64,000 bases of DNA from a virus (Duplodnaviria > Heunggongvirae > Uroviricota > Caudoviricetes): IMG/VR virus record IMGVR_UViG_3300018414_000006, positions 1-64,000 of that record, one strand, 5' to 3'. The notes under the pieces were generated by a model that searched no databases, had not been told where the DNA came from, and saw nothing but the letters and a program-made list of their open reading frames with translations. Within the stretch, counting starts at the first letter, position 1, and every line of letters starts with the position of its first letter. The translations under genes were made by a program, and so were the position numbers. Below are positions 1,020 through 51,802 of this stretch, one piece after another.

Positions 1020-1331
1020 ATGGTAATAAATGCTCGATTGATTCCTGAAAAGGGCGCAAAAATTCTTATCAATCCAGAAAAGGATCTTTTTCTTTCTTCG
1101 GATGAAAGAACCTGGATGTGTCGTATTCTGTACGATCCCACACTTAATAAATGGCTTATTGCTTCGCATTTTAATTCAGAAACAGGTCGATGGAAATCTG
1201 TCACATCACATCAAAAGATTGGCATGATCATATTTCTTAATGATGAACCTCTTCCTACAGATACACATGTACAGATCAGTTCTATCAAAAGAGGTGGTAC
1301 CGCAGCATACGGAGATCTGATCTGTGAATAG
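1020..1331 (+). CDS. hypothetical protein (103 aa)
   Basis: ORF only. Confidence 0.35.
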   Translation: MVINARLIPEKGAKILINPEKDLFLSSDERTWMCRILYDPTLNKWLIASHFNSETGRWKSVTSHQKIGMIIFLNDEPLPTDTHVQISSIKRGGTAAYGDLICE

Positions 1332-1992
1332 AAGTCTGATTAAGGCAAATCATGTTTTTGATCTAGTGCGTGAGTATCGTGTTTCTTTGCTCAAAGAAAA
1401 AGTTTGTGTTTCTCGAAAACGTTTTCAGGTACTGTACAATGCATTGATGAAGATTTCTGCATTCTACATTGATGCATTGCCTGAATCCGATGTCATTGTG
1501 CACCTGAGGCGCGATATTCGATTGTCAACAAAAGGAACTCCCGCAACTATTGCACAAGACAGTATCACCAGTGCGGGGTATATTTCTACCGGCACAGAGC
1601 AACTGTATCATGCACAAAGTCATCTTGTGCAATCTGCGTTCAGAAAACTTGCGCCACTTGTTCATCCGGATCGCGGTGGTAGTACTGAACAGTTTCAAAT
1701 GGTACTTGATGCATACAGATTGCGAGATTTGACATTTTTGCAAGAAATGTATCTGTCACTTACAAAAGATAGATTCTGGTGGAATTCGCAGGATGCAATT
1801 GTATATCTGGAACGTGAATTAAAGCGGCCCGATGTCACTCTGGAAATTATTAAAAATTCTGAGCTTTTTCAAATTTTGAAATTTCATCAAGCCGGAAAAA
1901 CAGAAGAGGCAAAAGAATGTGCAAAAAACTATGCTTCTCGTAAAGTTATAGAACTTATGCTTGAATTAAATCATCTTACAAGGAATTTGTAA
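1324..1992 (+). CDS. J-domain (DnaJ-like co-chaperone domain) protein
   Basis: AFRKLAPLVHPDRGGSTEQFQMVLDAYRL matches J-domain helix II, the HPD loop and helix III (compare KLALKYHPDKN...FKEI.EAYEVL). The 3' end overlaps the next start (TAATGG). Confidence 0.55.
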   Translation: MNRSLIKANHVFDLVREYRVSLLKEKVCVSRKRFQVLYNALMKISAFYIDALPESDVIVHLRRDIRLSTKGTPATIAQDSITSAGYISTGTEQLYHAQSHLVQSAFRKLAPLVHPDRGGSTEQFQMVLDAYRLRDLTFLQEMYLSLTKDRFWWNSQDAIVYLERELKRPDVTLEIIKNSELFQILKFHQAGKTEEAKECAKNYASRKVIELMLELNHLTRNL

Positions 1993-2753
1993 TGGCAACT
2001 ACTACACGTGCAGTAGCAGTGAAAACAGGTCCGAAAAATAGAAATGTTCGGAATGTGGTACAAGAGATTGTTCGTGCCAACGTGAAAAAACCCACTACTG
2101 TGACGTCGCGAAAAACATCAATCAAAACGCCACTTGCAACATACGAAGCACCGCCAGATTTCAAACCACATTTTCTTGAAGTGACAGTTCGCACAGAAAA
2201 AGATGGCTTGCTTGCATCTTCTATTAAAGCAACTCGTTATCAGGGACGGTACGATCCAGATGTGGCAGATAATAAAAAAGCGGATCTTGGATCATATGAT
2301 ATTGCTACGTTGATCGGTATTCAGGCACGACTTGCCGGATTTACATACAGATCAAATGCAGAAAAAAAATTGCCAGTTCAAATTAAGGAACGAAATCGTA
2401 CTGAAAAAATTCAAGGTAAACCAAAACTTGTATATCGCACGGCACATAGATTACCACCCAATACCGTTTTCCGTATTCTTTTTCGTGTTTCCCGAAAAGC
2501 AGCAGATGGCAGTCTTTCGATAGGTATGAAACAGGTGGAACAGATTGTAAAAAGTGAAATAAATCGGCCCACACTTGGCAAAGTAAAAACTCGTGAAGAA
2601 ACTGGAAGAACGAAAATTGTTCTTCTGGAAAAAACAGATCCCGTTTTTCGTATGTTTCTGCGTGCGCGGCGCATTCTTCCGGCAGCATTTAAAAATGTCA
2701 TGCTTCCACCAAAGCGTATTCGTGGGAAGAAAGTAGAACAGTCTGAAGATTAA
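1992..2753 (+). CDS. hypothetical basic protein (253 aa)
   Basis: ORF with a lysine/arginine-rich composition. Confidence 0.45.
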   Translation: MATTTRAVAVKTGPKNRNVRNVVQEIVRANVKKPTTVTSRKTSIKTPLATYEAPPDFKPHFLEVTVRTEKDGLLASSIKATRYQGRYDPDVADNKKADLGSYDIATLIGIQARLAGFTYRSNAEKKLPVQIKERNRTEKIQGKPKLVYRTAHRLPPNTVFRILFRVSRKAADGSLSIGMKQVEQIVKSEINRPTLGKVKTREETGRTKIVLLEKTDPVFRMFLRARRILPAAFKNVMLPPKRIRGKKVEQSED

Positions 2754-2761
2754 ATTTTTGT

Positions 2762-2806
2762 AGCGCAGTAAATAGTAGTGTAGTAAATAGTAGTGTAGTA
2801 AATAGT
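2762..2806 (+). repeat. 3 x 15-bp tandem repeat (GTAGTAAATAGTAGT) in the intergenic region upstream of the AT-hook gene
   Basis: Direct reading: gcaGTAAATAGTAGT GTAGTAAATAGTAGT GTAGTAAATAGTAGa. Confidence 0.6.
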
Positions 2807-2855
2807 AGATGTAGCATAGTCGTAATTTTTCATCCTTCTATACACAGGAATTAAA

Positions 2856-3641
2856 ATGGCAATCCGTACTAATAAAAACGCACGCATTCAAGAAGAAACT
2901 CCCGTTCGTCGTGGCCGTGGCCGTCCTCCGAAAAATGCGCCCACCGCACGTCGCACACGTGAGGTAGAAGATGTTGAATACGATGAATCACCGCGTCAAC
3001 GTAAGGCACAACGTGTTCAAGAAGAAACTCCCGTTCGTCGTGGCCGTGGCCGTCCTCCGAAAAATGCGCCCACCGCACGTCGCACACGTGAGGTAGAAGT
3101 TGCTGATGATGAAATCGCAGTTGAACAACATGTGTTTTTGAAAGTGCAATCCTCAGTGCGCGCAGACACTTCGAAAAAACCCACTACCGTAGCGCTTTTC
3201 GGTGAAGGTGGTGTAGTTATTCCTCGGCAGGAAGTTACTGCAATTGTTGGGCAAACTATTTATTTTAACACTGTGCAGCCGCTTGGAAAAATTCTGTCTA
3301 TTCAGACACTAAACGATCGTCTTGTTTATAAGACTGAAGAATCCGGAAATGTAATTGTGATGGATCCCGATCAGTTTTTTATTACCAGTGGTGTTACTGC
3401 ATCGGACAAAGAATCAGAAGAGGATGTTGCACAGTCACATCGAAAATCTGCACGACGCCAAGATCCGGAAGACGACCCGGAAGATGATACCCAAGAATAT
3501 GAGGAAGAGGAAGAAGGTTCAGAAGAATATGATCCAGAATATGAAGAGGGTGATTCCGAAGATGATACTCAAGAATATGAAGACGGAGAAAATGAGGAAG
3601 GTCCAGAAGAAGACGACGATGATGGTTTTCTGGAATTCTAA
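2856..3641 (+). CDS. AT-hook (GRGRPPK) DNA-binding protein with an acidic C-terminal tail; contains an internal tandem duplication
   Basis: The peptide EETPVRRGRGRPPKNAPTARRTREVE occurs twice, with a perfect 84-nt direct repeat at 2887-2970 and 3016-3099 (129-nt period). RGRP is the AT-hook core. The C-terminus is Asp/Glu-rich (DPEDDPEDDTQEYEEEEEGSEEYD...). Confidence 0.7.
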   Translation: MAIRTNKNARIQEETPVRRGRGRPPKNAPTARRTREVEDVEYDESPRQRKAQRVQEETPVRRGRGRPPKNAPTARRTREVEVADDEIAVEQHVFLKVQSSVRADTSKKPTTVALFGEGGVVIPRQEVTAIVGQTIYFNTVQPLGKILSIQTLNDRLVYKTEESGNVIVMDPDQFFITSGVTASDKESEEDVAQSHRKSARRQDPEDDPEDDTQEYEEEEEGSEEYDPEYEEGDSEDDTQEYEDGENEEGPEEDDDDGFLEF

Positions 3642-3653
3642 TAATTAATTGAA

Positions 3654-3686
3654 ATACGGACGGGAAATTTCCCGTCCGTATTTAGG
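3654..3686 (+). terminator. stem-loop (ATACGGACGGG-aaattt-CCCGTCCGTAT) followed by a TTT run
   Basis: Perfect 11-bp inverted repeat 13 nt after the stop codon. Confidence 0.5.
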
Positions 3687-3695
3687 ACATCTCCG

Positions 3696-4013
3696 ATGGA
3701 AAAGAAAGAGCATCTTGCACTATACTCTACAAAATGTAAATCTTGTGCATATCTGTTTCCTGACGAAACCAGGTTCTACAAGACATGTCATTACAAACTA
3801 GGAAACAATGGCAAAGGAAACAGATTTTGTCCCGCTGCTGATTTACAGATTGTCATAGTGGGAAGAATCATGAATCTTGTAAAAATGCTTAAAGCCGCTC
3901 GCTTTAAGAGAGATGCAAAATCCGAAGCTCGTATTTTGGCATCAGTGGCCAAGGAGTCTGAATCTTTTATAGAACGATTCTATCATTATCTAGAAAATGG
4001 AGCTGGTCAATGA
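3696..4013 (+). CDS. hypothetical protein with Cys-x2-Cys pairs (105 aa)
   Basis: ORF containing CKSC...C.HYK; GGACATCTCCGATG ribosome-binding context. Confidence 0.4.
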   Translation: MEKKEHLALYSTKCKSCAYLFPDETRFYKTCHYKLGNNGKGNRFCPAADLQIVIVGRIMNLVKMLKAARFKRDAKSEARILASVAKESESFIERFYHYLENGAGQ

Positions 4014-4753
4014 CTTTCTATGGGGTAACGAAACCCTCATCTGTCGAATCAGAAAAAATTCTCAGACTGGTAAAGATCAAACAGTGGTACATTCCATACG
4101 ATGGGGACTCCTATAAGCTGTTACGTTCAGCGGGAGTTCCCTTGGTTCGTTTTCATGAAAATTTTCTTCCTACGTTACAGCTTTTGTGCAAGAAACACAA
4201 GTTTCGTGGACAGTTGATAAATTTTCGTGAAAAAGTCCTTGAGCCTTTTCTGGATAAAGTTGGAATCACCTTTAATCGAAAACCACATTGCCGCGCTACA
4301 ATAAATACAAAATCCCTAAGATTTGAAACACTAAAACCCGAAGTATTTCAGGCAATGAAAGAAAATACTATTCCCAAGCTGGAAGATGTGCTGTTAGCAT
4401 TTTTTCGACGCTGGGGATACAAAAGCACTTTCAAGTATTCAGAACATCGCGGAAAAATTCTTCTCGTTGTAGATTACTGGTATGATAGTGAAAAACTTCC
4501 CATCATACCGCTAGCAGAATCGCTAGAGGAATTACCTCCGGTACGCATAAAGTTTGGCATGACTCGCATCACTTTGAAGATGGGAGAAAAATATCTGGAA
4601 ACGATTATAGAAGTATCTCAGGGTGGAATATTCAAGACCCTACACACAACACGATGCCTGTATTCACAAATGTCTTCAGTTAAACCAATGATTCATGCTT
4701 TGATGGAAGTTCCCAACAGGGATCAATATAACTTTGATAATTCTGCGGATTGA
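4010..4753 (+). CDS. hypothetical protein (247 aa)
   Basis: ORF with an ATGA overlap onto the upstream gene. Confidence 0.45.
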   Translation: MTFYGVTKPSSVESEKILRLVKIKQWYIPYDGDSYKLLRSAGVPLVRFHENFLPTLQLLCKKHKFRGQLINFREKVLEPFLDKVGITFNRKPHCRATINTKSLRFETLKPEVFQAMKENTIPKLEDVLLAFFRRWGYKSTFKYSEHRGKILLVVDYWYDSEKLPIIPLAESLEELPPVRIKFGMTRITLKMGEKYLETIIEVSQGGIFKTLHTTRCLYSQMSSVKPMIHALMEVPNRDQYNFDNSAD

Positions 4754-4756
4754 ATT

Positions 4757-5029
4757 GTGAAACGAACCCTTCTTGTTGAGAAAGATCCTGATTCCTGCTA
4801 TGGCGCTACGGTATTAGGATTATCCGGATGCTACACATATGGAAACTCGATTGAAGAACTATGCATAAATGCAAAACAGGCGATTCGTTCTCATGTGGAA
4901 ATTATGAGTCAGTGCGATTCTGAAATAGATAATTTGTTTTTGGAATCGGGAATCGAACATTGGAAAAACTGTTTTGATCAGACTTCTCTCATAGAAGTAG
5001 ATGTGAACATTGACGATCTCAAAAATTAA
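4757..5029 (+). CDS. HicB-like (UPF0150) antitoxin-fold protein
   Basis: VEKDPDSCYGATVLGLSGCYTYGNSIEELCINAKQAIRSHVE resembles the HicB N-terminal domain (xEKDEDGGYVAxxPDLPGCxTQGDTLEEALxNAKEAIE). It begins with GTG. Confidence 0.4.
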   Translation: MKRTLLVEKDPDSCYGATVLGLSGCYTYGNSIEELCINAKQAIRSHVEIMSQCDSEIDNLFLESGIEHWKNCFDQTSLIEVDVNIDDLKN

Positions 5030-6680
5030 CATGGCTACTCAAAAACAGTATAATTCTGACAGCATTGAAACTTTACGCTTTCCTGATTCCATTCGAAGAA
5101 ATCCTTCTATGTATCTCGGAAGTGTTGATGCTGACGGTGTGTGGCTTTGCGTAAGAGAATTACTAGATAATGGTCTTGATGAACATCTGGCAGGACGAAA
5201 TGATTCAGTGCATTTTCATGCGGACAATGATGGATCTTTTTGGGTTCTGGATTCTGGACAGGGTGTTCCTCAAGGAGTTAAAAATTATACTACTAACATT
5301 GGTGGTAAAGAAGTAAAACATTCAATGCCCACAATGCAGGCAGTGTTCGGAGAACTTCATACCTCTGGTAAATTTCGAGATGATGCTTACGCTGTTTCAG
5401 TCGGCACACATGGCGTAGGTGCGAAGGGAACTAATGCAACGTCAGATTTTTTTGATGTTCATACATTCTACAAAAATAAATGGTATTCGATTGGTTTCAA
5501 AAAGGGCAAAATTACATCTTCTGTAAAAGAAACCAATGCACCTGTTTTGTGGAATGGTACAAAAGCATCACAGGGAACAGTTATTCACTTCAAGCCAGAT
5601 GCTACTATTTTCACTGCAAAATCCTTCGCACCTAGCAGGATTGTAGAGTGGTCGGAAATCATGGCATATCTGAATCCGGGATTTCGAATCACTGTCAGTT
5701 CTTCAAAAGGAAAGAAGCAATTCTTTTCACGCAAAGGGACTACTGAATACGTCGCACAACGTATGCTCAAGCTGAAAACAGAAGGCGAGCGAACCCTGTT
5801 TGAATATCATGATTCACTTGCGGATATTGTTGTCGCTTTTACAAATCACGATGGTTTTGAAATACGTGGATTTACTAACGGGTTGAATAATAGCCAGGGT
5901 GGCAAGCACGTCGATTCCGTGGTCGGTGCTTTGTACAAAGGGTTGAGTCCTTATATTAAAACTCGCAAGGTACGAGAATCTGGCAAAGTAAAAACTGTTC
6001 CAGTATTTAAAGAAGCGGATCTTAAGGAAGGTCTTGTTGGATTGATTAATGCAAAGTTGCACAAAGCACAATTCAGTTCTCAGGATAAAGCTCGTTTGAC
6101 AGATGATCGTGTCGGAAAAGATTTTGAAGAAACCGTGACTAAAGCCACACTTTCCTTTTTCAGGGAAAACAAAGCTATGGCACTTCGTATCTGCGAACGT
6201 GCTACCAAACTGAATGAGCTTAAAGGTAAGTTCACTCTAAGCAAAAAAGCTGCTGCTACACTTAATGCTGTCAAAAGAAATGGTCTTCCTGCAAAATACG
6301 CACCCTTTAATTCTGCAACTAAAACAGCAGACAGAGAACTTTTTCTTGTGGAAGGCGATTCGGCAGGTGGTTGCTTTTTGGGCAATACACAAATTCGTCT
6401 TAGTGATGGAAGCATTATTTCTTTTGAGGACTTAGAATCCAATAAAAACTTTCCAAAAATTGGTATATCTTGGGATATTGATAAATCACAATTTCTTGAT
6501 ACTGAGTTGAAAGACGTGCGTATTACTAAATACGCACGGCAATTGATTGAACTCACATTTGAAGATGGATCTACTGTGACTTGCACTCCGGATCATCAAT
6601 TTTTAACGGAAAACAGAGGATACGTTGAAGCACAACATTTATGTAGTGACGATATCATACAGCAATACCGGCAGAAATAA
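5010..6680 (+). CDS. Topoisomerase II large subunit (T4 gp39/GyrB-like): N-terminal part fused to a 102-aa N-terminal split-intein fragment
   Basis: GHKL ATPase motifs (ELLDNGLDE, HGVGAKG) run through the TOPRIM motif EGDSAGG. Then come intein block A (CFLGNTQIRLSDGS) and block B (TVTCTPDHQF), followed by a stop. The intein fragment spans 6372..6677. Confidence 0.85.
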   Translation: MTISKINMATQKQYNSDSIETLRFPDSIRRNPSMYLGSVDADGVWLCVRELLDNGLDEHLAGRNDSVHFHADNDGSFWVLDSGQGVPQGVKNYTTNIGGKEVKHSMPTMQAVFGELHTSGKFRDDAYAVSVGTHGVGAKGTNATSDFFDVHTFYKNKWYSIGFKKGKITSSVKETNAPVLWNGTKASQGTVIHFKPDATIFTAKSFAPSRIVEWSEIMAYLNPGFRITVSSSKGKKQFFSRKGTTEYVAQRMLKLKTEGERTLFEYHDSLADIVVAFTNHDGFEIRGFTNGLNNSQGGKHVDSVVGALYKGLSPYIKTRKVRESGKVKTVPVFKEADLKEGLVGLINAKLHKAQFSSQDKARLTDDRVGKDFEETVTKATLSFFRENKAMALRICERATKLNELKGKFTLSKKAAATLNAVKRNGLPAKYAPFNSATKTADRELFLVEGDSAGGCFLGNTQIRLSDGSIISFEDLESNKNFPKIGISWDIDKSQFLDTELKDVRITKYARQLIELTFEDGSTVTCTPDHQFLTENRGYVEAQHLCSDDIIQQYRQK

Positions 6681-6856
6681 GTTCTAATGTGGAAATATTG
6701 TTGTGCCGTAACAATGTCCTTATCGTAAGCAATACAAAATTTCTTATACCATTTCTTGTTCTTGCTCTTAACTGCTATTGCTCGCATCTTAGGATAGTCG
6801 TTCATAGTTTTATTTGGTTGAGGGTGACAAGACATACAACGAAATAAAATTAACAA
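6596..6856 (-). CDS. possible small ORF in the 176-bp gap between the split-intein halves (TTG start; the MSCHPQP... or MNDYPK... form from an internal ATG may be the real one)
   Basis: The only minus-strand ORF that does not overlap a stronger + strand gene. It is Cys/Lys-rich, with no recognisable motif. Its position matches where free-standing endonuclease genes sit in other split-intein loci. Confidence 0.15.
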   Translation of the reverse strand: MLILFRCMSCHPQPNKTMNDYPKMRAIAVKSKNKKWYKKFCIAYDKDIVTAQQYFHIRTYFCRYCCMISSLHKCCASTYPLFSVKN

Positions 6857-8146
6857 ATGAGAATCGTAAATAAACGTAGAATAGAACTACAGAACCCAGT
6901 TCCTGTATACGATCTAACGGTGGATGATTATCATAATTTTGTTTTAGCTAATGGTGCTGTTGTGCATAATAGCGCAAAAGAAGCTCGTTATCAATTTCAG
7001 GCAGTTCTTCCCCTAAAAGGAAAAGTTGCAAATGCTCTAAAAATGGAACAGTCTAAAACTCTGGAATCAGAAGAAATTATCAATATTCTGGCAGCGATTG
7101 GTTATGATATAAAAGCAGCAGATCCATATGCGCGTTTGTCAGTTGGCAAAATTATCTGTCTGGCTGATCCTGATCCTGATGGCCCATTTATCGGAAACAC
7201 GTCAATTCTTATGCGTCCGCCTGGCGCTTTTGAGGGTATTTATAACAAGACTCTTACTATCGAAGAACTGGCCAACGCCAATACTGCTTTTGAAGTACCC
7301 GTGTGGTCTGGTGGCAAACAGATATGGGCATCCGCCAGTGCAAGTTTTATCAAAAATGTAGACCAGATTGTTGCTCTGGAAATTGGTAAAACCAAATTCA
7401 AGGTGGATCTCAATCACAAGTGGATGTGCCTCAATACCAATTCTCTGAAGGGTCGTGAAGTAACGCCTTTCAATGATAATCTGGTGTATGTGAAAGCGAA
7501 AGATCTGCGTGTTGGTGATCGTGTGTTTATGCCATTTAACAATAATAGCAAAAAACCTTCGGAAGTGGATTACAATACGCGATTAGGCTATGCGCCTGTT
7601 TCCAAAATGCGAATTCAGAAACTTGATGAACCTGTACCTGTCTATTGTCTCAATGTACCTCGTTATCATCATTTCATTCTTCCTTCTGGAGTAGTTTCAA
7701 GTAATTGTCACATCAACAGTCTTTTGCTGGCACTGTTCTACAAATATCTTCCAGATCTTTTCACACGAGGAATGATATATGTTTCCGCTGCACCAGAATT
7801 CTATGCAATTCATAAAGGCAATCTGGTAACAGGCGACAGACTTTCTGTGATCAGTGACAAGCTTAAAAAAATTGGAGCATCTGAAAATACACCAATAGTT
7901 CACATTAAAGGCTGGGGAGGAATCAACGCTGACTTGATGCGTATCTTTGCGATGAATCCATCATCAAGAAGACTTATTCAGATAAGAGCTATAGAAAAAG
8001 AAGATCGTGTTGAGTTTGTTAAGCTCATGAATGAAGATGTCGAATTTCGAAGAGAACTTTTTAATCTTCCAATAAATGCAGTCAAAGGATCAGTCAGCAA
8101 AGCAGGAATTATTTCTGCAAAGAATCTTTCTGAAAAGGTGAAATGA
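6857..8146 (+). CDS. Topoisomerase II large subunit (T4 gp60/GyrB C-terminal-like): 38-aa C-terminal split-intein fragment plus C-terminal extein, with a second internal intein
   Basis: MRIVNKRRIELQNPVPVYDLTVDDYHNFVLANGAVVHN|S gives blocks F and G. SAKEARYQFQAVLPLKGKVANALK continues GyrB TOPRIM ([25 protein letters not shown]). DPDPDG is followed by an insert, then CHINSLLLALFYKYLPDL...GMIYVSAAPEF (GyrB: DADVDGSHIRTLLLTFFYR...GHVYIAQPPLY). Confidence 0.85.
   Translation: MRIVNKRRIELQNPVPVYDLTVDDYHNFVLANGAVVHNSAKEARYQFQAVLPLKGKVANALKMEQSKTLESEEIINILAAIGYDIKAADPYARLSVGKIICLADPDPDGPFIGNTSILMRPPGAFEGIYNKTLTIEELANANTAFEVPVWSGGKQIWASASASFIKNVDQIVALEIGKTKFKVDLNHKWMCLNTNSLKGREVTPFNDNLVYVKAKDLRVGDRVFMPFNNNSKKPSEVDYNTRLGYAPVSKMRIQKLDEPVPVYCLNVPRYHHFILPSGVVSSNCHINSLLLALFYKYLPDLFTRGMIYVSAAPEFYAIHKGNLVTGDRLSVISDKLKKIGASENTPIVHIKGWGGINADLMRIFAMNPSSRRLIQIRAIEKEDRVEFVKLMNEDVEFRRELFNLPINAVKGSVSKAGIISAKNLSEKVK
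7184..7705 (+). other. Second, contiguous mini-intein (174 aa) between the TOPRIM DPDPDG motif and CHIN; class-3-like signature
   Basis: The N-terminus PFIGNTSILMRPPG is paralogous to CFLGNTQIRLSDGS but starts with Pro. Block B DLNHKW supplies His plus Trp. Block F PVYCLNVPRYHHF has Cys where intein 1 has Asp (VYDLTV). The C-terminus is GVVSSN with +1 Cys. Confidence 0.55.
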
Positions 8147-8147
8147 A

Positions 8148-9653
8148 ATGGTCACTAGAAAAAAAGCAACTCTTTCAGATTTGATTCCCACAAAAGATCA
8201 GGATGTTTTATTTGAATCGCTTCGAGAGTTTGGCAAGCGTAACATGACGATATACGCGGCCGCTGTAAATCTGGACAGATCAGTTCCTGATCTTTTTGAC
8301 GGACTCAAAACGGTTCAAAGGCGCGTGCTTTACGGAACGTTCAAAGAAGCATCCTCACAGTTTGAAAAAACCGCGCGTGTTGTGGGCACCGTTCTGGGTA
8401 GATACCACCCGCACGGGGATCTGTCTGTAGTAAAAGCCATTGAGACAATGGTGCACACTGCTACGCCCGTAGTGACTGGCGAAGGAAACTGGGGCAACAT
8501 GATCGATGGCTGTGCGGCAATGCGTTATACCGATTTGAGATTATCCCAATTCGGAAAAACTTTCTTTGATCCTGATTACATTAACAGTCAGGTAACTTCC
8601 TTCATACCGAATTACGATGATAAAGATGTTGAGCCAGTGACTTTGCCCGCACAACTTCCTAACGTTTTGATGAATGGAAATTCTGGAATCGGTGTAGGTA
8701 TAACAACTACGCTACCTTCATTCACACCCGAATCAATTCAGACTGTTTTGAAAAAAATGCTACAGGGTGAAAAACTGGAAGCTGCTGATTTTGCAAAAAC
8801 TTTGAAGTACGCTCACAAGTGGGGAGGACAACTTGTTAGAACAAAAGAAAATCAGCAGGCATGGCTGAATCTGTTTCAAGGAACCGCAGCTTCTGTATTG
8901 TTTGAATCGGATATTGAAGTAGATCGAGATCATAAACAAATGGTAATTTCGGATTGGCCTCAAGGAACTGATCTTGAAAAATTTGTGAGCAAGATTCGAG
9001 CTATGCCTGAATGCCTGTCTTGTCAGAACTCCAAAGGCTCAATTACCTACACGATCAAATGCAAACCTGCTTATAACTACAATCAGTTTGACAAGTTTCT
9101 TGACAAGGTGAAACGTGCAACACGACAAAAACGTTCTTTCAAACTTAATGTTACTTTGCGGGAATCGCGCACGGTCGATGGCGTAACTACCTTTGAAACA
9201 AAATTTCTTGCAATGTCTGTTCCAGAAATTCTAGTGACATGGCTTCATCTTCGTCTTGATCTTGAACGTCGCAGCCTTGAATGTCGTATCGAAAAACAGA
9301 ATGTTGCTATTGCATATTCTGAGTTACTTCTCTATGCATGCGATAAACTTGACGCAATTTTCAAAGCATTGCGATCCACCGACCCAGAAAGCACAATGAT
9401 GCGTTTGCTCAAAATTACACGTGATCAGTCACAGCAGATCCTGGAATTGAAAGTGCGTCAGTTATCAAAACTGGATCAGTCTGAAATCAGACAGAAATTG
9501 AAAGATCAACAAATGCATTTGAGGCAATTGCAGGCGTGGTTGAAAAAACCGCGCAGCAAGGTAGCACTCGATATAGACAAGACACTTGAATGCATACAGC
9601 GAGATCGTGATGTAGTCACAAAACGCGAAACTCGAAAATTGCAAGTAGTATGA
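8148..9653 (+). CDS. Topoisomerase II DNA breakage-reunion subunit (T4 gp52/GyrA N-terminal-like)
   Basis: LKTVQRRVLYGT (GyrA LKPVHRRVLYAM), YHPHGDLSVVKAIETM (YHPHGDSAVYDTIVRM), and AMRYTDLRLSQ with the catalytic-Tyr motif (AMRYTEIRL). Confidence 0.85.
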   Translation: MVTRKKATLSDLIPTKDQDVLFESLREFGKRNMTIYAAAVNLDRSVPDLFDGLKTVQRRVLYGTFKEASSQFEKTARVVGTVLGRYHPHGDLSVVKAIETMVHTATPVVTGEGNWGNMIDGCAAMRYTDLRLSQFGKTFFDPDYINSQVTSFIPNYDDKDVEPVTLPAQLPNVLMNGNSGIGVGITTTLPSFTPESIQTVLKKMLQGEKLEAADFAKTLKYAHKWGGQLVRTKENQQAWLNLFQGTAASVLFESDIEVDRDHKQMVISDWPQGTDLEKFVSKIRAMPECLSCQNSKGSITYTIKCKPAYNYNQFDKFLDKVKRATRQKRSFKLNVTLRESRTVDGVTTFETKFLAMSVPEILVTWLHLRLDLERRSLECRIEKQNVAIAYSELLLYACDKLDAIFKALRSTDPESTMMRLLKITRDQSQQILELKVRQLSKLDQSEIRQKLKDQQMHLRQLQAWLKKPRSKVALDIDKTLECIQRDRDVVTKRETRKLQVV

Positions 9654-9657: not shown

Positions 9658-9799
9658 GTTGCACAAAAACAACAGTGTTGCAATTATGCAACACTGTTGT
9701 ATTTTTACAACACACAGCAACAGAAAACTGTGTTATACTGTAAGTGTGGCAACAGGTAACAGCCACCACGTAATCACAATCCTAACGTAAAGGATCATC
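9658..9799 (+). promoter_or_regulatory. Conserved promoter/operator module, copy 1: TTGCACAAAAACAACAGTGTTGC, the palindrome CAACAGTGTTGC-N6-GCAACACTGTTG, an extended -10 TGtTATACT, a 5'UTR hairpin GTGGC...GCCAC and the leader CCTAACGTAAAGGA
   Basis: Near-identical copies are at 10240-10355 and 17637-17763, with a variant at 25588-25672. The palindrome spans 9670-9699 and TATACT sits at 9733-9738. Confidence 0.55.
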
Positions 9800-10732: not shown

Positions 10733-11158
10733 ATATAGTTCGTAGCGAACTGTCGAATACGTATCCACTTTCTTTTCTCAGAAAAGTCACAGATATTGCA
10801 ATAACAATTGCAGCAATATTTGAAAAAACGTTAATCATCTTGTGATAGATGCATATAGTATGTCATTGAATAATAATGATGGTATACTGAAAAAAGTGTC
10901 CAGTCTTACCTGAACTATATAATATTCATATGTTAGAAATTGATCTTGGTCACTATATTTTCATAAATATCAATCAGCATAGTTTGACAAACTATGTAGA
11001 TCGTATAAAATTCAAATCAATTTTATCTGAATGTGTTGCTTCTGGTGAAGCTCCAGATACTATCATGTATCCAGAGCAAGATGAACTGGAAAAATGAACA
11101 GAATTATCAAAAACTGTTTAACCGCAGTATATTAACTTTTTACAATTTGAGGAATCTT

Positions 11159-11971: not shown

Positions 11972-12092
11972 ATTAATCCTGGTCTGATGCCACACAAGTG
12001 TTAATTTTATTTTGCTAGTAAATAACAAGTGTGAAGTTATTTTCACACCTGTTTAATTAAAACCCTTCCTATCACATAAAAGGAAATTTAAA

Positions 12093-12494
12093 ATGGCAAC
12101 GCAACAAAAACAGAATTCGGTTCAAGTGCTCAAACAAGCAGTTTCAGAAATGAGCAAACTGTCTCGTGAAAATTCGAAAAAGGATCGAATCATTGAAAAG
12201 CTGGAAGAACGTGTAACAGCTCTTCGTGAAAAACTTTCCGGCGAAAAGACGCAGCGCAATGTCACAGCAAATAAATCCGCTGCAAAGCGAGGTCGTCCGT
12301 CGCGTAATACGCAAGAAGAAACTCCGGTTCGTCGTGGACGTCCTCCGAAAAATGCACCTACTGCACGTCGCACACATGAAACAGAAGACGATGTTTCTGT
12401 GGCAAAGCGTGGTCGTCCTTCGACGAAAAAGGCACCGATCAAATCGGCAAAGTCTGGAAAAAATGCTGCAACCGATCCGGGATTTTTCATCTGA
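12093..12494 (+). CDS. AT-hook protein 2 (paralog of 2856..3641)
   Basis: EETPVRRGRPPKNAPTARRTHETEDD is nearly identical to the repeat unit of the first AT-hook protein. Additional KRGRPS motifs and an N-terminal coiled-coil-like region are present. Ribosome-binding site AAAGGAAATTTAAAATG. Confidence 0.65.
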   Translation: MATQQKQNSVQVLKQAVSEMSKLSRENSKKDRIIEKLEERVTALREKLSGEKTQRNVTANKSAAKRGRPSRNTQEETPVRRGRPPKNAPTARRTHETEDDVSVAKRGRPSTKKAPIKSAKSGKNAATDPGFFI

Positions 12495-47176: not shown

Positions 47177-50100
47177 ATGGCATTGCGTCCAGTATCAAAT
47201 TTGCACATACCAGAGCATCTTATGCTACCAAGCAAAGATCTCAAGCAAAGATTTTTCTATGTTTACAATCATGGTTTCACGGGATCCGGTGCCGCATTCA
47301 TGACTCGTTTGTGGGCATCTATGTATTTTCCTTCAGTGACTAAAGATCCTAAATTTGGTACCAAGAAAATTCGTGCCACTGCTGAAAAACTTGCTGCAAT
47401 AATTCCAGCCGGATACCTTCGAGTTAAAAAAGAAATGGGAAAAAATCCCCATTTTGTAGTAAGTGTTCCAATTTACACTTTTTCAAGAAACATTTCCCAG
47501 TCCTTAGCATTTCTTCAAAATACATTTTTGGGAGGAGAACCATCATCTACACCAACGGCTGAACAGATTCGTCATGCCAATGATTTTGAGAACAGTTTGC
47601 CGGAATCTACAGAAGGTCAGATAAATTTCACAACAATTACTGCCACAAGAGTTATTTCAGCAATGCGTCTGGATGCTTTCGGACAGGAAGCATTGCGCAC
47701 ATGCCTTATTAATGTTACTTTTCAGGCCAAAGGAAATCTGGTAGTAGTTTTTGCCAATTTTCGAATAACAAAAGAAGAAGCTCAACAGTTGACTACAACT
47801 GAATGGCAACAGCTTCGTGATATAGATTTGTATCCACCACTTCTGCAATGGGTGCAAACTACTTTTGGCGATAGGGGAATGGTGCCTATAGCAAGTTTTC
47901 CTGTTTCCAAAATTGCATTTACTTTACCTGCTTCACACGTTGAAAACGCTCGTATTAATGAGTATGGCATCTCTATCAGTGGCAATGGAGTTCCATTATA
48001 TCTTCCCAAAGAAGTTGACAAACAGCAAACTATTGCTTATGAGGATAAATACACTCAAGCTGGCAGTCGTGAAGATGGTTCTTTTGCTTTGGTGGACATT
48101 AATGAAGGTGCTTCCGCAATGGAAAGGGGGACCGAGATAAAAACTCGTCTTCCTGCTAACATTGTCGTAAGTATAGATTGGCTCAATAACAAATTTGCCT
48201 ATACCAATACTTCTGGCATGCTGACAGTGCAGGACCTCGCACGTTTTCATAAAGCGGATATTTCACATATTCGCAATCTAATGGATGATCGTGGCGTAAC
48301 AGATGCACTTATTAATAGCGCCATTCGTATGGGGGAAGCTGCAGGAGTCAGTGAGTCCGTTTTCAGACCGCTCGCCAAAGATCTGGCAGGAATAGAGTTA
48401 TCTTCAGTGTTACGTCAGCAATTTGATCACGCAGAAAATTCACCATTTGATTGGTTCAAAACTGCGGCACGTGCCTACAAGTCAGTTGAGGATCAGGATG
48501 TAATCAAAATTTCAGATATTTCTATAAATGGATTTGGTCCTTTTGCTCCTTTGGCACGATACATTAAGAATGTCACAGATGCAATTATAGGAAACCTTGA
48601 ATCTGTATATGTTAGATATTCAATCAAGACTGTTTCTGAAAGTCTTCCGTGGTTAATAATGATTGCAAAGTACAGTGACAATATCACTGAACTTCGTGCA
48701 AAAGATGAAGCCAATAGAAAAGCTGCAATTGAACAAAAAATTGATCCAGATTGGACTATTCCTTCTTGCCCATTACTTGCAGATGAAATAGGACTTCTTC
48801 CGCATCAGAAAAAAGTACGCAATCTTCTCAAAGACAGCCCTGACTTTGCCATTATTCCCGTTCAGGCTGGCGGGGGAAAATCTGTTCTCATTCTTACAGA
48901 TATTCTTTATGAGATTAAAGCTAATCGTAGTGAGCCTTATCTCATTTTGTGCCCTGGGCATCTGGTTGCAAACTATGTACAGGAAATAGTATATTTCACC
49001 AAAGGTAAGTTGAACGTAATACCTATTGTGTCGGTGGTTATTGAACAGAATGGCTGGGCTAGATTACAGGCTATATTTGAAGCAGCACCGCGTAATACTG
49101 TAGTAGTTTGTGACTATGATGTTTTGAAATTTAGAGCACGTTCTGTTTGCTATGGAACTACTCCTGAAGTAGTTTACCCTGTTGTGGATTTTTTACGTCA
49201 ATTTAAATTTGGATACGTTGCAATGGATGAATCGCATCGTGTGAAAAATGATAATCAACGTGCTCGTACCACACAGCTTCTTATTTCAGATATCAAAAAG
49301 AAAAGACTTGCTTCAGGTACCATGGTACACGATAGTCCATCAGATCTTGCAGTGCAGATTGGTATGATGGACCCAACTCTTTTTGGAACAAAGGAACAGT
49401 TCAATGAAAAATATGGAGATATCGTATCTGGTGGACGTGTTGTAAAATGGCGGCCTAATGCGCAACAAGCTGTAATGCAAAAAATTCGTAGTCGTGTAGT
49501 TATTGCAGGGGCTATGAGAAAAGAATGGGCAGCACTTTTACCAAGAAAAAGAGAAGCTATTCTTGTCACAAGCCTGACTCCAGAACAGCAACGAATTTAT
49601 GACAGTCTTCTTGAAGGTGTTTTGAAACAGATTCAGGAAGATGCTAAAAGTAAAAAGGCACTGAAGAAATTTCTTCAAGAGGGAGAAGATGAACCTACAC
49701 CGAATCCTGATACGGCAGAAGGTGAAGAAGAACAGGAAAATGAAGTAAATGAGGACGAAGGCGAAGATCTTGCCGATTTGCTTAAACCATATCTGGCCAG
49801 ATTGGAACAGTTTCTTATAGCGCCAGGATCAGATAAATTAGTTCAACATGAACTGAGTGGGCCAGATCTGATTTCACGTAAAACATTAAGAATATTAGCA
49901 CGTGTACATGCTCATATCTTTGGTGGTGACAAATGGTACGATGATAATGGTAAATTGGTTACCGAAGATTATGGTCCATTTCCTGGAAAGGTGCTGATTT
50001 TCTGTAATCAGATTGAATCTGCCGAAGAAGTGTGGCGACTGGCATCTCCACAATTGAAAGCATGTGGCATTCTATATAAAGCAGCAGAGAAAACAGAACA

Positions 50101-51802
50101 TGGAGCACGTTTTGAAAATGATCCAAAAATAAAATGGATGGTAGGTGTTCAGGCATCTATGAATGAAGGTTTGAATTTTCAGTTCTGTTCTCGATTAATT
50201 CGTACTGAAACCGTATGGAATCCGGGCGCTCTTGAACAAGGAGACTCTCGCATCAACCGTCCTGAACTAAAGAAAACTGAAGTACGATCAACTATTTTTT
50301 ATGATACCGTAGTAGCTGATAAGACTATCGACATTACCAAAACAGCCAGACTGATATCCAAAATTATTGCTGCTGCAAAATTTGAAAATGCCGAAAATGT
50401 AGAATACGCTGCTATTCCTGATGTGCCTATCATAAAAATGAGTTTTCGAAATATTCGAAGTTTGAATACCTGGCAGCCTATTTCTGAAAGTAATCCCGGA
50501 TTGCTGACCTACGCTCAAGCACTTTCAAAATATGTGAATGTTCGAGAAGACGATTATGATCAGTATAAAGAAAATTACATTAAGAAGTATGGCACAGGCC
50601 CAGTACGGGAAAAAATACCGGTTGCGCCTAATCCAAAAGATGCAAAACTTTTGAAAAGAGTTCCTTACGTTCCTGGATTAGGTATCTATAAAGCAGAAGA
50701 TTTAGGACTTGTTCGTATTGATAACTATCTCAATATGTCTCAAGTTGATACCGAAAATGAAGATGAGGATGAAGCTAGTATTAACGAAGAAACCGCCCGC
50801 AAACTAGATGCCTTAAAGGGAATGCCAGTTCATACAGAATTTGGTGAAGGTATAATTCGTTTAGCAGGCCGTGGAAAGTTCACCAGTGTTATTCTTAACT
50901 CAGGTTATGCAGTAAAAATTAGAAAAACTCAGGTTTTCTTGATTACACGTACCGAAACTTCTACAAAAGATATTCGTAATCAACTACTGAAAATGGTGGG
51001 GGAATTACCTCTGTCTACACCTATTGAAGTTCCGGCTGAATCATGGAAAGCATCAAAAGCTGCTGAAAAACTTCAACTTGAAAAACAAAAAATTCAAGAA
51101 ATAAAGGAAACAAAGAAACGACATGAAAAACTCAAAGCCGAACTGTCAATAGAACTTTATTTGTTTATTGCTAATGGATTTTTAGGAATTGACTATGCGA
51201 TTGATGAAAACAACCAAACGGCTATGAAAACACTTCAGGCCAATGGATTCAGAATTACGGCACCTTTTTACTATTCCAAAATATCCAGTGCACTAGCTTT
51301 AAAAAATCAATTGAATCTTTGGCAAGAAAAGGGATTAAGACCTGACAAAATTATTCTTGAACAGGGTGGCAGAGAAGCATTCAATGAACTGTACAAGCTT
51401 ATAAAAGCAGGTAAAATAAAAAGTCATTCGGATACTTATAAATATGCTAAATCGAACAATGTTGTGAATTTTTTCAGATTAGAGCACAAACCCAATAATA
51501 ACAAAATGCAGTTCAAGCCTTATGCACTAATACAGGACAATATTGCATATATTGCATTGCCTGCACAAGGGCAAGCAGGCACCAGAACAGCCATGAGTGC
51601 TCAATTTAGAAAACCCACTTTCAGATGGAGCCTAGCAGACCCAACCCTGAGTTATTTTGGAACGGTTCAACAAATCGAAGAAAAACTTCAAAAATTGGAA
51701 GAATCAGGAATACAAATTTCCAATATCAAAGATCTTGAACCTGAATTACGTAAATTGCGTAGAATGTCAATTCGCAAACTTAATGAAAATGAAGGTTTTT
51801 AA
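47177..51802 (+). CDS. SNF2-family (Swi2/Snf2-like, DEAH-box) ATPase/helicase, 1541 aa, with long N- and C-terminal extensions
   Basis: Motif I LLPHQKKVRNL...PVQAGGGKSV; motif II YVAMDESHRVKN (SNF2 DEAHRLKN); motif III ASGTMVHDS; motif IV KVLIFCNQI; motifs V/VI GVQASMNEGLNFQ...TVWNPGALEQGDSRINRPELKK (Q..R.hRiGQ). Confidence 0.85.
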   Translation: MALRPVSNLHIPEHLMLPSKDLKQRFFYVYNHGFTGSGAAFMTRLWASMYFPSVTKDPKFGTKKIRATAEKLAAIIPAGYLRVKKEMGKNPHFVVSVPIYTFSRNISQSLAFLQNTFLGGEPSSTPTAEQIRHANDFENSLPESTEGQINFTTITATRVISAMRLDAFGQEALRTCLINVTFQAKGNLVVVFANFRITKEEAQQLTTTEWQQLRDIDLYPPLLQWVQTTFGDRGMVPIASFPVSKIAFTLPASHVENARINEYGISISGNGVPLYLPKEVDKQQTIAYEDKYTQAGSREDGSFALVDINEGASAMERGTEIKTRLPANIVVSIDWLNNKFAYTNTSGMLTVQDLARFHKADISHIRNLMDDRGVTDALINSAIRMGEAAGVSESVFRPLAKDLAGIELSSVLRQQFDHAENSPFDWFKTAARAYKSVEDQDVIKISDISINGFGPFAPLARYIKNVTDAIIGNLESVYVRYSIKTVSESLPWLIMIAKYSDNITELRAKDEANRKAAIEQKIDPDWTIPSCPLLADEIGLLPHQKKVRNLLKDSPDFAIIPVQAGGGKSVLILTDILYEIKANRSEPYLILCPGHLVANYVQEIVYFTKGKLNVIPIVSVVIEQNGWARLQAIFEAAPRNTVVVCDYDVLKFRARSVCYGTTPEVVYPVVDFLRQFKFGYVAMDESHRVKNDNQRARTTQLLISDIKKKRLASGTMVHDSPSDLAVQIGMMDPTLFGTKEQFNEKYGDIVSGGRVVKWRPNAQQAVMQKIRSRVVIAGAMRKEWAALLPRKREAILVTSLTPEQQRIYDSLLEGVLKQIQEDAKSKKALKKFLQEGEDEPTPNPDTAEGEEEQENEVNEDEGEDLADLLKPYLARLEQFLIAPGSDKLVQHELSGPDLISRKTLRILARVHAHIFGGDKWYDDNGKLVTEDYGPFPGKVLIFCNQIESAEEVWRLASPQLKACGILYKAAEKTEHGARFENDPKIKWMVGVQASMNEGLNFQFCSRLIRTETVWNPGALEQGDSRINRPELKKTEVRSTIFYDTVVADKTIDITKTARLISKIIAAAKFENAENVEYAAIPDVPIIKMSFRNIRSLNTWQPISESNPGLLTYAQALSKYVNVREDDYDQYKENYIKKYGTGPVREKIPVAPNPKDAKLLKRVPYVPGLGIYKAEDLGLVRIDNYLNMSQVDTENEDEDEASINEETARKLDALKGMPVHTEFGEGIIRLAGRGKFTSVILNSGYAVKIRKTQVFLITRTETSTKDIRNQLLKMVGELPLSTPIEVPAESWKASKAAEKLQLEKQKIQEIKETKKRHEKLKAELSIELYLFIANGFLGIDYAIDENNQTAMKTLQANGFRITAPFYYSKISSALALKNQLNLWQEKGLRPDKIILEQGGREAFNELYKLIKAGKIKSHSDTYKYAKSNNVVNFFRLEHKPNNNKMQFKPYALIQDNIAYIALPAQGQAGTRTAMSAQFRKPTFRWSLADPTLSYFGTVQQIEEKLQKLEESGIQISNIKDLEPELRKLRRMSIRKLNENEGF

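Follow-up and report, generated by a model that had tools for sequence, protein, structure and literature searches.

Genes and features at the locus

The sequence analysed was the first 64 kb of IMG/VR record IMGVR_UViG_3300018414_000006 (hereafter the window). It belongs to a jumbo phage known from a metagenome, with phiRSL1 of Ralstonia, BcepSaruman of Burkholderia and Motura of Achromobacter as distant relatives. Two genes were characterised, g1 (2856..3641) and g2 (12093..12494), together with their neighbours; all lie on the + strand, as do the features described around them, except for a set of tandem units to which no strand was assigned.

The intact ORF of g1 encodes 261 aa, with a basic disordered N-terminus, a beta-domain and an acidic tail. 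It opens with an ATG, 7 nt downstream of an AGGA ribosome-binding site, and its homologs keep the N-terminus MAI[RS]xxK. The 102-nt gap upstream of g1 holds three tandem 15-nt units (AGTAAATAGTAGTGT; 2767..2814), a possible regulatory site; elsewhere in the window only two weak matches to the unit were found at up to two mismatches. No sigma-70-like promoter was found upstream of g1. Directly downstream, a perfect 16+16-nt palindrome (3652..3683) is predicted to fold into a 14-bp hairpin (-25.4 kcal/mol, z = -4.7), likely the transcription terminator of g1, with a weak U-tract.

The product of g2 has 133 aa and a net charge of +17, with a predicted coiled coil at aa 1-50, three AT-hooks and the C-terminal tip GFFI. 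CGT accounts for 84% and 73% of the Arg codons in g1 and g2 respectively, with no AGA or AGG, compared with 39% CGT in 14 long ORFs. The ribosome-binding contexts of the two genes are strong and near-identical. Codon use, ribosome-binding contexts and the g1 hairpin all fit high expression of the pair.

Between g1 and g2 lie the topoisomerase II genes (5010..9653), with the large subunit in two ORFs and the small subunit at 8148-9653, the latter 54-58% identical to those of phiRSL1 and Saruman (tblastn). This flanking arrangement was seen in 8/8 genomes examined. A Cys-rich protein of about 105 aa (3696-4013) and a 247-aa protein (4010-4753) occupy 3696..4753, between g1 and topoisomerase II; both have orthologs in contigs L004 and L006 and in Motura, and neither returned a family match. 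A conserved 253-aa protein (1992..2753; orthologs L004 9108-9800 and L006 8295-8819) is encoded directly upstream of g1. The conserved gene before it, two genes upstream of g1 (1324..1992), encodes a J-domain-like protein with an HPD motif. Its assignment to the J-domain proteins, made in the earlier note, is plausible, with LVHPDR...LTFLQE kept in the L006 ortholog (7430-8278), but its Pfam DnaJ score of 21.4 bits is below the threshold of 27.8. Apart from this sub-threshold hit and AT_hook, no family in PHROGs, NCBIfam or Pfam was found for either protein or for any of their four syntenic neighbours. The 1541-aa protein at 47177..51802 is indeed an SNF2 ATPase (Pfam SNF2-rel_dom, 65.8 bits). 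The functional tie proposed earlier between these two genes and the hook proteins found no support: the SNF2 gene is 44 kb away with nothing to link it to g1 and g2, and the J-domain neighbourhood amounts to synteny.

AT-hook motifs

Both proteins carry the AT-hook motif, as had been claimed from inspection of the sequence. There are five sites, RRGRGRPPKN twice in g1 and KRGRPSRN, RRGRPPKN and KRGRPSTK in g2 (RGRP cores at nt 12288-12299, 12333-12344 and 12408-12419), each with a G-R-P core and Arg or Lys on both sides. A six-frame translation of the window holds five [RK]GRP tetrapeptides, all of them within the g1 and g2 ORFs. The raw count of five is only a modest excess over chance (shuffle mean 1.3, shuffle maximum 5); the significance of the hooks rests on their clustering and full hook context. 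Pfam AT_hook (PF02178) scores were 16.8-16.9 bits for g1 (best stretch aa 19-29), 17.4 for g2 and 29.8 for the L006 ortholog of g2, against a gathering threshold of 17.4 bits that discriminates poorly for so short a motif. Since the same scan gives human HMGA1a 16.2 bits, the hooks of the window are as good as the archetype. In g1 they lie in predicted disorder (aa 1-88, AlphaFold2 pLDDT 46-52 and below 50 at the hooks, no secondary structure). The hooks of g1 and g2 are canonical AT-hooks, for which DNA binding is predicted.

The two hooks of g1 sit in a perfect 84-nt duplication, reported correctly in the earlier note. Copy 1 (2887..2970) contains hook 1 (aa 18-27, nt 2907-2936) and is exactly repeated as copy 2 (3016..3099), which contains hook 2 (aa 61-70, nt 3036-3065). 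Each copy encodes QEETPVRRGRGRPPKNAPTARRTREVE. All 27 complete codons are identical, with zero synonymous differences and sharp boundaries, and no other exact run of at least 8 nt occurs at the 129-nt offset. That period had been given correctly, though it suggests a tandem unit when only 84 nt are duplicated: the repeat is not a simple 129-nt tandem, because the 45 nt that follow the first copy are unlike those that follow the second, and the 45-nt spacer is unique. The perfection of the copies means that they are recent or recently homogenised, so that the proposal of a very recent duplication stands with one alternative beside it; the repeat is either a recent duplication of 84-96 nt or the product of gene conversion between older copies. 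Its G+C content is 60% against 38% for the genome, which reflects amino-acid composition, while GC3 is native (0.29 versus 0.28). Foreign origin of the G+C-rich hook DNA was ruled out on this ground, and the native GC3 points to a module kept by selection.

The module is shared beyond g1. Over 77 nt, with a 6-nt indel, the DNA of the middle g2 hook can be aligned with the g1 repeat (score 94, codon-shuffle maximum 31), and g2 carries the repeat peptide minus one GR (RRGRPPKNAPTARRT). The pattern E-E/A-x-P-x-RRGRPPK recurs in two g1 homologs, P0005 and P0008, and in the g2 ortholog of L006. EExPxRRGRPPK is kept in three independent phage contigs and at three positions, namely the g1 N-terminus, the acidic tail of P0005/P0008, and g2. 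The hook appears to be a portable module, recently duplicated or homogenised in g1, common to g1 and g2 at the DNA level, and swapped in relatives.

Protein families and co-variation

The g1 family comprises about 10 clusters among 1.84 billion representatives, and all homologs are phage proteins, with syntenic members in phiRSL1, Saruman, Motura and metagenome contigs. Their common layout is a basic disordered module, an orphan all-beta domain of 90 aa, a poly-acidic tail and a C-terminal [DE][DE][LM]F tip. Two frameshifts in the database record divide the phiRSL1 homolog (ORF328/329). Two Calx-beta repeat proteins among the HMMER matches (P0007 and P0012) were set aside as repetitive, non-phage and different in architecture. 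A word-indexed protein search returned P0009 only for the family profile and nothing for the g1 domain. In the search for variants in hook copy number, scans of IMG/VR and JGI metagenomes with the g1 protein, P0002, a two-sequence profile and the exact hook DNA found nothing; exact-sequence look-up of the g1 protein of the window returned no contig; and megablast of positions 2000-5000 detected no close relative among 50,697 phage records.

The beta-domain of g1 (aa 90-178; 3123..3389) is its sole folded part and the sole part conserved across the family. It is predicted with pLDDT 85, and the best fold matches are SH3/Tudor-like. CarD homology was rejected: hhalign against M. tuberculosis CarD (identical to PDB 4kbm_B) gave a probability of 0.2%, and PF02559 (CarD_CdnL_TRCF) had no match in 11 g1-family members at E up to 1. 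A nucleoplasmin core was ruled out on fold. The tail (aa 186-261; 3411..3638) is about 50% D/E and disordered (pLDDT 40-54), ending in FLEF at nt 3627-3638. Its last 72 residues are 31% Glu and 19% Asp, which bears out the Asp/Glu-rich tail described earlier. An acidic tail with a [DE][DE][LM]F tip was found in 9/11 full-length g1 homologs, leaving aside P0009 and P0010 with their seemingly aberrant or truncated C-termini; the tips seen in the family include EELF, EEMF, DDLF, DELF, FLEF and DDFF.

The g2 family is built differently, with a predicted coiled coil, then a disordered basic stretch, and a [DE][FY]L[ILV] tip at the end; the tips seen are DDFLI, DDFLV, DDFLL, NEYLI, DDYLL and PGFFI. 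In g2 the coiled coil is indicated by weak matches to coiled-coil Pfam families at aa 5-67, and a heptad-like KKDxxIxKLE segment is conserved in the orthologs: phiRSL1 ORF342, L006 16030-16440, L008 16736-17209, L009 18580-19002, L010 17405-17881 and Motura 11552-12013. The proteins g1 and g2 are not paralogs, a point that the earlier note had missed; they represent two different conserved families with the hook module alone in common.

Conservation of the RGRP motif, which the earlier note had named as a test of its reading, is partial: the motif is kept in P0005, P0008 and the L006 ortholog of g2, whereas most other g1/g2 homologs carry Lys/Ala/Pro-rich or Lys/Gly-rich segments in its place. 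The type of basic module agrees between g1 and g2 in each of the six genomes in which both were seen. Both proteins are of the AT-hook type in the window and L006 and of the Lys-rich type in phiRSL1, L008, L009, L010 and Motura, with R/(K+R) of g1 at 0.69-0.73 in the former and 0.08-0.21 in the latter. An explanation by which AT-hooks track low genomic G+C was discarded, a relative with 33% G+C having lysine blocks and one with 50% G+C having hooks.

Proposed function

The reading we prefer, at a probability of roughly 55%, is that g1 and g2 are unrelated, lineage-specific, largely disordered DNA-associated proteins of the conserved early/DNA-metabolism module of phiRSL1-like jumbo phages, with g1 most likely acting as adaptor and modulator. 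Most likely they are abundant architectural DNA binders whose binding is modulated by the acidic tail. The hooks of g1 would tether it to DNA while the small beta-barrel touches a partner. The acidic tail may fold back on basic segments, either its own hooks or possibly those of g2, and so tune DNA affinity, as in phi29 p6, HMGA and HMGB1, and the hydrophobic C-terminal tip could serve as a docking peptide for a partner. The plan of g2, presumed to self-associate, can be likened to H-NS/Lsr2 or to a linker histone, and in related phages the hook of both proteins is replaced by Lys-rich H1-like segments.

The charges of the two proteins allow other readings. It is possible, if on balance doubtful, that g1 is mainly an acidic decoy or chaperone, whose tail binds and buffers either the basic g2, in a relationship like that of prothymosin-alpha with H1 or of nucleoplasmin, or host nucleoid proteins such as HU and H-NS, the latter as a DNA-mimic anti-host function, the hooks merely placing it near DNA. 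All g1 homologs are net-negative (-29 to -66, with -29 for g1 of the window) and all g2 orthologs net-positive (+16 to +31); the genes are always co-present and syntenic, and the acidic tail is the most constant feature of g1 besides the beta-domain. In the tails of P0004, P0005, P0008, P0011 and Saruman gp174, moreover, acidic blocks alternate with short basic EPAPKKxGKK or RRGRPPK blocks. A pure decoy, however, would have no need of the DNA-binding modules that are conserved in each member, and the beta-domain is SH3/Tudor-like at best, not a nucleoplasmin-type pentameric jelly roll. A more elaborate reading appears unlikely, in which g2 would be a self-associating linker-histone/HMGA-like DNA coater and g1 a poly-acidic protein dedicated to chaperoning or antagonising it, with prothymosin-alpha or nucleoplasmin and their dealings with H1 as functional parallels; this minimal phage 'chromatin' pair would act with topoisomerase II to organise or protect a replicating genome of more than 200 kb, its DNA-binding modules (AT-hook or Lys-rich) exchanged and co-evolving. 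The C-terminal tips raise the somewhat more remote prospect that g1, g2 or both are accessory factors of the replisome or of transcription, tethered to the phage clamp or polymerase. T4 clamp ligands carry 'hydrophobic and acidic C-termini' on unstructured linkers (PMC2988020), and g1 and g2 likewise have a short acidic-hydrophobic C-terminus on a disordered linker. Their tips can be set beside the gp45-binding ends of T4 gp43 (SLDFLFG) and gp55 (SLDFLYEAND), an analogy that extends to the C-terminus of gp33, which also binds gp45, and to the tails by which SSB and T7 gp2.5 hold on to their partners. The lineage, T4-related subgroup 2.2, also has a clamp, a clamp loader, a sigma factor and a gp33 ortholog and depends on host RNA polymerase (PMC7824862, PMC5468394). 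The phiRSL1 clamp, though, is annotated as beta-clamp-like, not gp45-like, and Motura g1 is without the hydrophobic tip. Nor did the replisome and sigma proteins of phiRSL1 itself support a clamp-binding tip by their C-termini: its large DNA polymerase ends in AVAEFME and its sigma factor in FTWNH, neither like the g1/g2 tips. A role for g1 as an OB-fold SSB with an acidic tail was rejected, as the domain is not an OB fold and phiRSL1 has a separate annotated SSB (ORF222).

High charge and disorder are typical of proteins housed inside the phage head, and jumbo phages package many such proteins. That g1 and g2, which share these properties, are virion-packaged proteins that neutralise or organise capsid DNA and enter the cell with it is nevertheless decidedly improbable: the genes lie in the replication/topoisomerase module, well away from those for head and tail, and no prohead-protease-type processing motif or virion annotation was found in any relative. 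Least credible is an assembly artefact behind the second hook copy, with the low-complexity segments as neutral filler. Only one metagenome contig, with a singleton protein cluster, does underlie the window, and the searches turned up no close relative in which the copy number could be confirmed. Yet the repeat keeps the reading frame, has unique sequence on both sides and is interrupted by the unique 45-nt spacer; short-read assemblers tend to collapse repeats, not create them; multi-hook arrays occur independently in P0008 and the L006 ortholog of g2; and the hook peptide is conserved across phages against genomic base composition.

The preferred reading, that of architectural DNA binders, would make g1 and g2, if they do coat or organise phage DNA, part of the handling of large genomes in jumbo phages that form no nucleus. 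Outside eukaryotes, canonical AT-hook proteins of the HMGA type are very rare, and here they occur as two unrelated proteins of one phage lineage. In 2010, CarD and its Stigmatella ortholog were described as the only prokaryotic proteins known with HMGA-like domains (PMC2919716). No description of the g1/g2 families or of AT-hook proteins in jumbo phages was found in the full-text literature, and the two belong to an undescribed pair of protein families confined to phages. Both families and the orphan beta-domain merit annotation, since all members are currently 'hypothetical protein'. The locus also catches module duplication in the act, together with the sharing of a module by g1 and g2. As phiRSL1, BcepSaruman and Motura can be cultivated, the roles of both proteins are directly testable in these relatives.

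Comparison with known systems

The earlier note saw in g1 the domain logic of HMGA/HMGB proteins. The HMGA half of this comparison is apt: like HMGA1/HMGA2 (PMC4482583), g1 has several canonical hooks (RRGRGRPPKN, compared with KRGRGRPRKQ in HMGA1), an acidic C-terminal tail and disorder. HMGA, however, has about 100 aa and no folded domain, whereas g1 has the orphan beta-domain and a much longer tail, and there is no sequence homology beyond the hook. The HMGB half fails, as g1 has no HMG box (no HMG_box Pfam match) and its only folded part is all-beta. Unlike xenogeneic silencers of the H-NS, Lsr2 and MvaT type, g2 has no folded DNA-binding domain but three hooks in disorder, or a Lys-rich tail in its orthologs, and it ends in a conserved acidic-hydrophobic tip; no homology of g2 to H-NS or Lsr2 was detected. 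In phi29, p6 is an abundant minor-groove binder that organises the viral genome, and its disordered acidic C-terminal tail provides electrostatic shielding and lowers DNA affinity (PMC10899789). The fold and sequence of p6 are unrelated to those of g1, its tail has 24 residues against 76 in g1, and it binds DNA through a folded core, not through hooks.

The true homologs, at the same genomic position, are phiRSL1 ORF328/329 and ORF342, BcepSaruman gp174, and Motura gp335 and gp329, all unannotated and with Lys/Ala/Pro- or Lys/Gly-rich segments instead of hooks. For the same three ingredients as in the g1 family, the comparison is Myxococcus xanthus CarD, with a Tudor-like beta-domain, an acidic segment and four RGRP hooks (PMC4374960, PMC2919716); P0008 even follows the CarD order of beta-domain, acidic segment and hooks. 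In CarD orthologs the hooks are replaced by a Lys/Ala/Pro-rich histone-H1-like domain, the same swap as in the g1 family, and the AT-hook domain of the Myxococcus protein and its H1-like counterpart in Anaeromyxobacter CarD can stand in for each other without loss of function (PMC2919716, PMC4374960). The g1 and g2 families offer a natural replicate of the equivalence between AT-hook and H1-like tail that was shown experimentally for CarD.

Results

The 261-aa ORF at 2856..3641 (+), g1, and the 133-aa ORF at 12093..12494 (+), g2, carry canonical AT-hooks (a GRP core flanked by basic residues), as the earlier note had claimed; two lie at the N-terminus of g1 and three in g2. Pfam AT_hook scored g1 at 16.8 bits and g2 at 17.4 bits (threshold 17.4), and human HMGA1a at 16.2 bits in the same scan; judged by Pfam score, the predicted hooks equal the best known hooks. 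Six-frame translation of the window returned five [RK]GRP sites, all within g1 and g2. As a bare count this is a modest excess over chance (shuffle mean 1.3, maximum 5), and the significance of the sites rests on their clustering and full hook context, not on their number.

The perfect 84-nt repeat in g1 was confirmed as the sole long exact run at a 129-nt offset (2887-2970 and 3016-3099), each copy coding for QEETPVRRGRGRPPKNAPTARRTREVE. The offset had been described as a period; it is correct, but only 84 nt are duplicated, and a clean 129-nt tandem unit was rejected since the 45 nt 3' of copy 1 and the 45 nt 3' of copy 2 are unrelated. Codon-by-codon comparison gave 27 successive identical codons with zero synonymous differences, and identity ends sharply at both edges, so the event is recent. 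It is either a duplication, as had been proposed, here of an 84-96-nt block, or gene conversion between two older copies; an assembly artefact is unlikely to account for the second hook copy. The G+C content of the repeat is 60% (window, 38%) because of its Arg, Gly and Pro codons, and its GC3 of 0.29, compared with 0.28 in long ORFs, indicates that the DNA is native.

g2 contains RRGRPPKNAPTARRT as well as KRGRPSRN and KRGRPSTK, and a 77-nt alignment, interrupted by one 6-nt indel, matches the DNA of its middle hook to the g1 repeat (score 94 vs a codon-shuffle maximum of 31). Paralogy of g1 and g2 was rejected, these being two separate protein families. Glu accounts for 31% and Asp for 19% of the final 72 residues of g1, in agreement with the acidic tail described before; of the HMGA/HMGB domain logic ascribed to it, the HMGA-like part holds and the HMGB-like part does not.

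Searched exhaustively with HMMER, 1.84 billion representatives yielded 12 matches, of which two were Calx-beta repeat proteins and were set aside; the other 10, query included, are true g1-family members. The exact g1 protein occurs once in a collection of 15 billion proteins, on a 119-kb JGI metagenome contig. The family starts with MAI[RS]..K and a basic low-complexity module, followed by a domain of ~90 aa with invariant glycines and an IPR motif, and a long Asp/Glu tail usually closing in [DE][DE][LM]F (tips EELF, EEMF, DDLF, DELF and DFEF; FLEF in the window, DDFF in phiRSL1, none in Motura). By tblastn, conservation in phiRSL1 and Sauron/Saruman is limited to the middle of g1, aa 92-181. 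The domain had no match in Pfam, NCBIfam, PHROGs or PDB sequences. Given the family alignment, AlphaFold2 modelled it confidently as all-beta (pLDDT 85, eight strands); in the full-length model order is confined to aa 90-178, with pLDDT about 40-55 in both flanks. phiRSL1 ORF328 and ORF329 are a single g1-type gene split in its RefSeq entry (phiRSL1 locus L001, 6721-7528; 219.7-220.6 kb) by two frameshifts, which are either genuine or the product of sequencing errors.

Over its first 48 residues g2 matches phiRSL1 ORF342, which has the same plan (coiled-coil-like N-terminus, then a Lys/Ala/Pro-rich tail) and the C-terminus GGDDFLI. Orthologs were identified by position and motif in the related metagenome contigs L006, L008, L009 and L010 and in Motura. 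Their ends are DDDYLL, DDDFLV, KDDFLL, DNEYLI and the less alike DDDDSFTLGN; window g2 ends in DPGFFI. g1 and g2 are two undescribed, phage-restricted protein families of putative function, assembled from known kinds of parts.

Megablast of positions 2000-5000 against 50,697 phage records gave no match. The topoisomerase II small subunit of the window (8148..9653) shares 54-58% identity with those of phiRSL1 (Ralstonia) and of BcepSauron, BcepSaruman and BCSR5 (Burkholderia), and the window is collinear with phiRSL1. Among its other products are an NAD-dependent ligase, a eukaryotic-type topoisomerase IB (32444-34117), a saccharopine-dehydrogenase-family, homospermidine-synthase-like enzyme (34236-35747), a 1541-aa SNF2-family helicase (47177..51802), inteins and a tail sheath. 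phiRSL1, Motura and PaBG belong to T4-related jumbo-phage subgroup 2.2 (Iyer et al., PMC7824862); phiRSL1 encodes no RNA polymerase and is sensitive to rifampicin (PMC5468394).

phiRSL1, Saruman, Motura and contigs L004, L006, L008, L009 and L010 share one gene order: a J-domain-like protein (where present), a ~230-250-aa protein, g1, a Cys-rich ~100-aa protein, a ~250-aa protein, the topoisomerase II large and small subunits, one or two genes, g2 and a ~320-aa protein. The J-domain gene (1324..1992) is a conserved neighbour of g1, and the SNF2 gene lies 44 kb away. The SNF2 assignment proved correct and the J-domain assignment is plausible, its HPD motif being conserved; the suggested link of both to g1 and g2 found no support beyond all being phage DNA-metabolism genes.

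The topoisomerase II large subunit lies in two ORFs (5010-8146). The first (5010-6680) has a C-terminal Hint-like stretch (CFLGNTQIRL...), and the second (6857-8146) starts just ahead of ...VVHNS and holds a further intein-like insert. In L004 (12123-16297) the halves are parted by an opposite-strand DUF7487 gene, with faint Intein_splicing matches. The arrangement possibly represents an intein that is split or has degenerated. A 661-aa ORF at 52388-54373 with Hint, LAGLIDADG and intein-splicing domains is an intein plus homing endonuclease within some host gene. The gene just upstream of g2 (11033-11971) has an internal EEDEDEDEDD run, and its positional counterpart in L006 (15086-15883) a faint CarD_TRCF_RID Pfam match.

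The ribosome-binding site of g1 is strong, and the 102-nt gap directly upstream of the gene holds three tandem copies of the 15-mer AGTAAATAGTAGTGT (2767-2814), absent elsewhere in the window apart from two weak matches and possibly an operator or promoter array. A search for a sigma-70-like promoter upstream of g1 found none. A 14-bp hairpin (-25 kcal/mol) lies 11 nt past the stop codon. Intergenic 19-nt tandem repeats at 9669-9713, 17626-17682 and 25587-25649 have a common palindromic core (TGTTGxA....ACAACA) and are possibly a recurring regulatory element of the phage. Repeats of 36, 72 and 181 nt (AAGAAACCCTAAG...AATGTATC...) form a complex array at 31028-31396, just upstream of ORF 31514-32353. 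Adjacent paralogs at 17764-18489 and 18991-19695 match phrog_7964 (E about 1e-58 each), whose function is unassigned; an 18-nt unit repeated eight times in tandem (19307-19450) was reported in the region separating them. In-frame 111-nt repeats at 63361-63900 (about 4-5 copies, 70-80% identity; minus-strand ORF 63262-63669 and beyond) are probably Ig-like or fibre repeats.

The basic modules differ between genomes. L006 (G+C 50%) has a g1 protein (P0008) whose N-terminus is without hooks, with four GRP hooks and further RGR motifs within the acidic tail, and a g2 with three hooks (Pfam 29.8 bits). L008 (52%) has EPAPKK[KR]GKK blocks in g1 and KRGRK and KKRGPK blocks in g2; in phiRSL1, L009, L010 and Motura (53-59%) both proteins are Lys/Ala/Pro- or Lys/Gly-rich. 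L004 (33%) has KGKKGKKK blocks in g1, g2 lying outside the fetched locus. The tail of the homolog P0005 carries the hook APKRRGRPPKK. RGRP conservation among homologs therefore holds for part of the family, including P0005, P0008 and L006 g2, whereas most others are Lys-rich. Three independent contigs carry a near-identical E-[EA]-x-P-x-RRGRPPK, which sits at three different protein locations; Lys-rich segments take the place that hooks have in other homologs (EPAP-KKRGKK-VVEE in the homolog P0004 vs EPAP-RRGRP-ARND in P0008); and module type agrees between g1 and g2 in 6/6 genomes where both were seen. Simple tracking of genomic A+T by hook use was rejected, given Lys blocks in L004 at 33% G+C and hooks in L006 at 50%. 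The comparison is instructive, suggesting a portable hook module, equivalence of the AT-hook and H1-like types, and concerted change of g1 and g2.

Discussion

The feature is real and was correctly observed; its interpretation was half right. On sequence grounds, g1 and g2 are best supported as abundant DNA-associated architectural factors, predicted to belong to the early/DNA-metabolism module. CGT makes up 84% of Arg codons in g1 (aa 1-85) and 73% in g2, with no AGA/AGG in either, compared with 39% CGT and 31% AGR in 14 long ORFs; the translation start contexts are almost identical (AGGAAxTTAAAATGGCA). Both hint at high expression. g2, with a predicted coiled coil and three hooks, would be laid out functionally like an H-NS/Lsr2-type bridger or a linker histone. 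g1 would act as an adaptor, tethered to DNA via its hooks and contacting a partner through its small beta-barrel, while the long acidic tail would tune binding by shielding basic segments. The acidic tail of phi29 p6 has been shown by experiment to play such a role (PMC10899789), and an acidic C-terminus is described for HMGA2 (PMC4482583). The phiRSL1 counterpart of the 34236-35747 enzyme, ORF110, is annotated homospermidine synthase, and the window gene adjoins topoisomerase IB; polyamines made by the phage would likewise neutralise charge on the DNA and may bear on the same biology.

The consistently opposite net charges (-29 to -66 for g1 proteins, +16 to +31 for g2 proteins) and the constant co-occurrence of the two leave room for g1 as an acidic chaperone, antagonist or decoy acting on g2 or on nucleoid proteins of the host. 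A clamp or replisome tether is not supported: the acidic-hydrophobic tips resemble the T4 clamp-binding C-termini of gp43 (SLDFLFG) and gp55 (SLDFLYEAND) (PMC2988020), but the phiRSL1 polymerase (AVAEFME) and sigma factor (FTWNH) end unlike them, its clamp is annotated beta-clamp-like and it already has a separate SSB. Virion packaging has nothing positive in its support, and gene position speaks against it. Acidic C-terminal tails with an aromatic residue were also seen in phiRSL1 ORF107 (L013, 5650-6480; …EDDGADFDY), directly upstream of topoisomerase IB, and in the SSB, ORF222 (L015, 7805-9277; …DDDDDFGDDDE).

The closest described analogue of the whole arrangement is Myxococcus CarD, by analogy, not homology; membership of g1 in the CarD family was rejected (hhalign probability 0.2%, no PF02559 match). 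CarD joins four RGRP hooks and an acidic segment to a Tudor-like domain that binds RNAP beta, and its Anaeromyxobacter ortholog has an H1-like domain able to replace the hooks with function fully kept (PMC4374960, PMC2919716). The phage g1 and g2 families present this CarD-type hook/H1-like swap twice in parallel.
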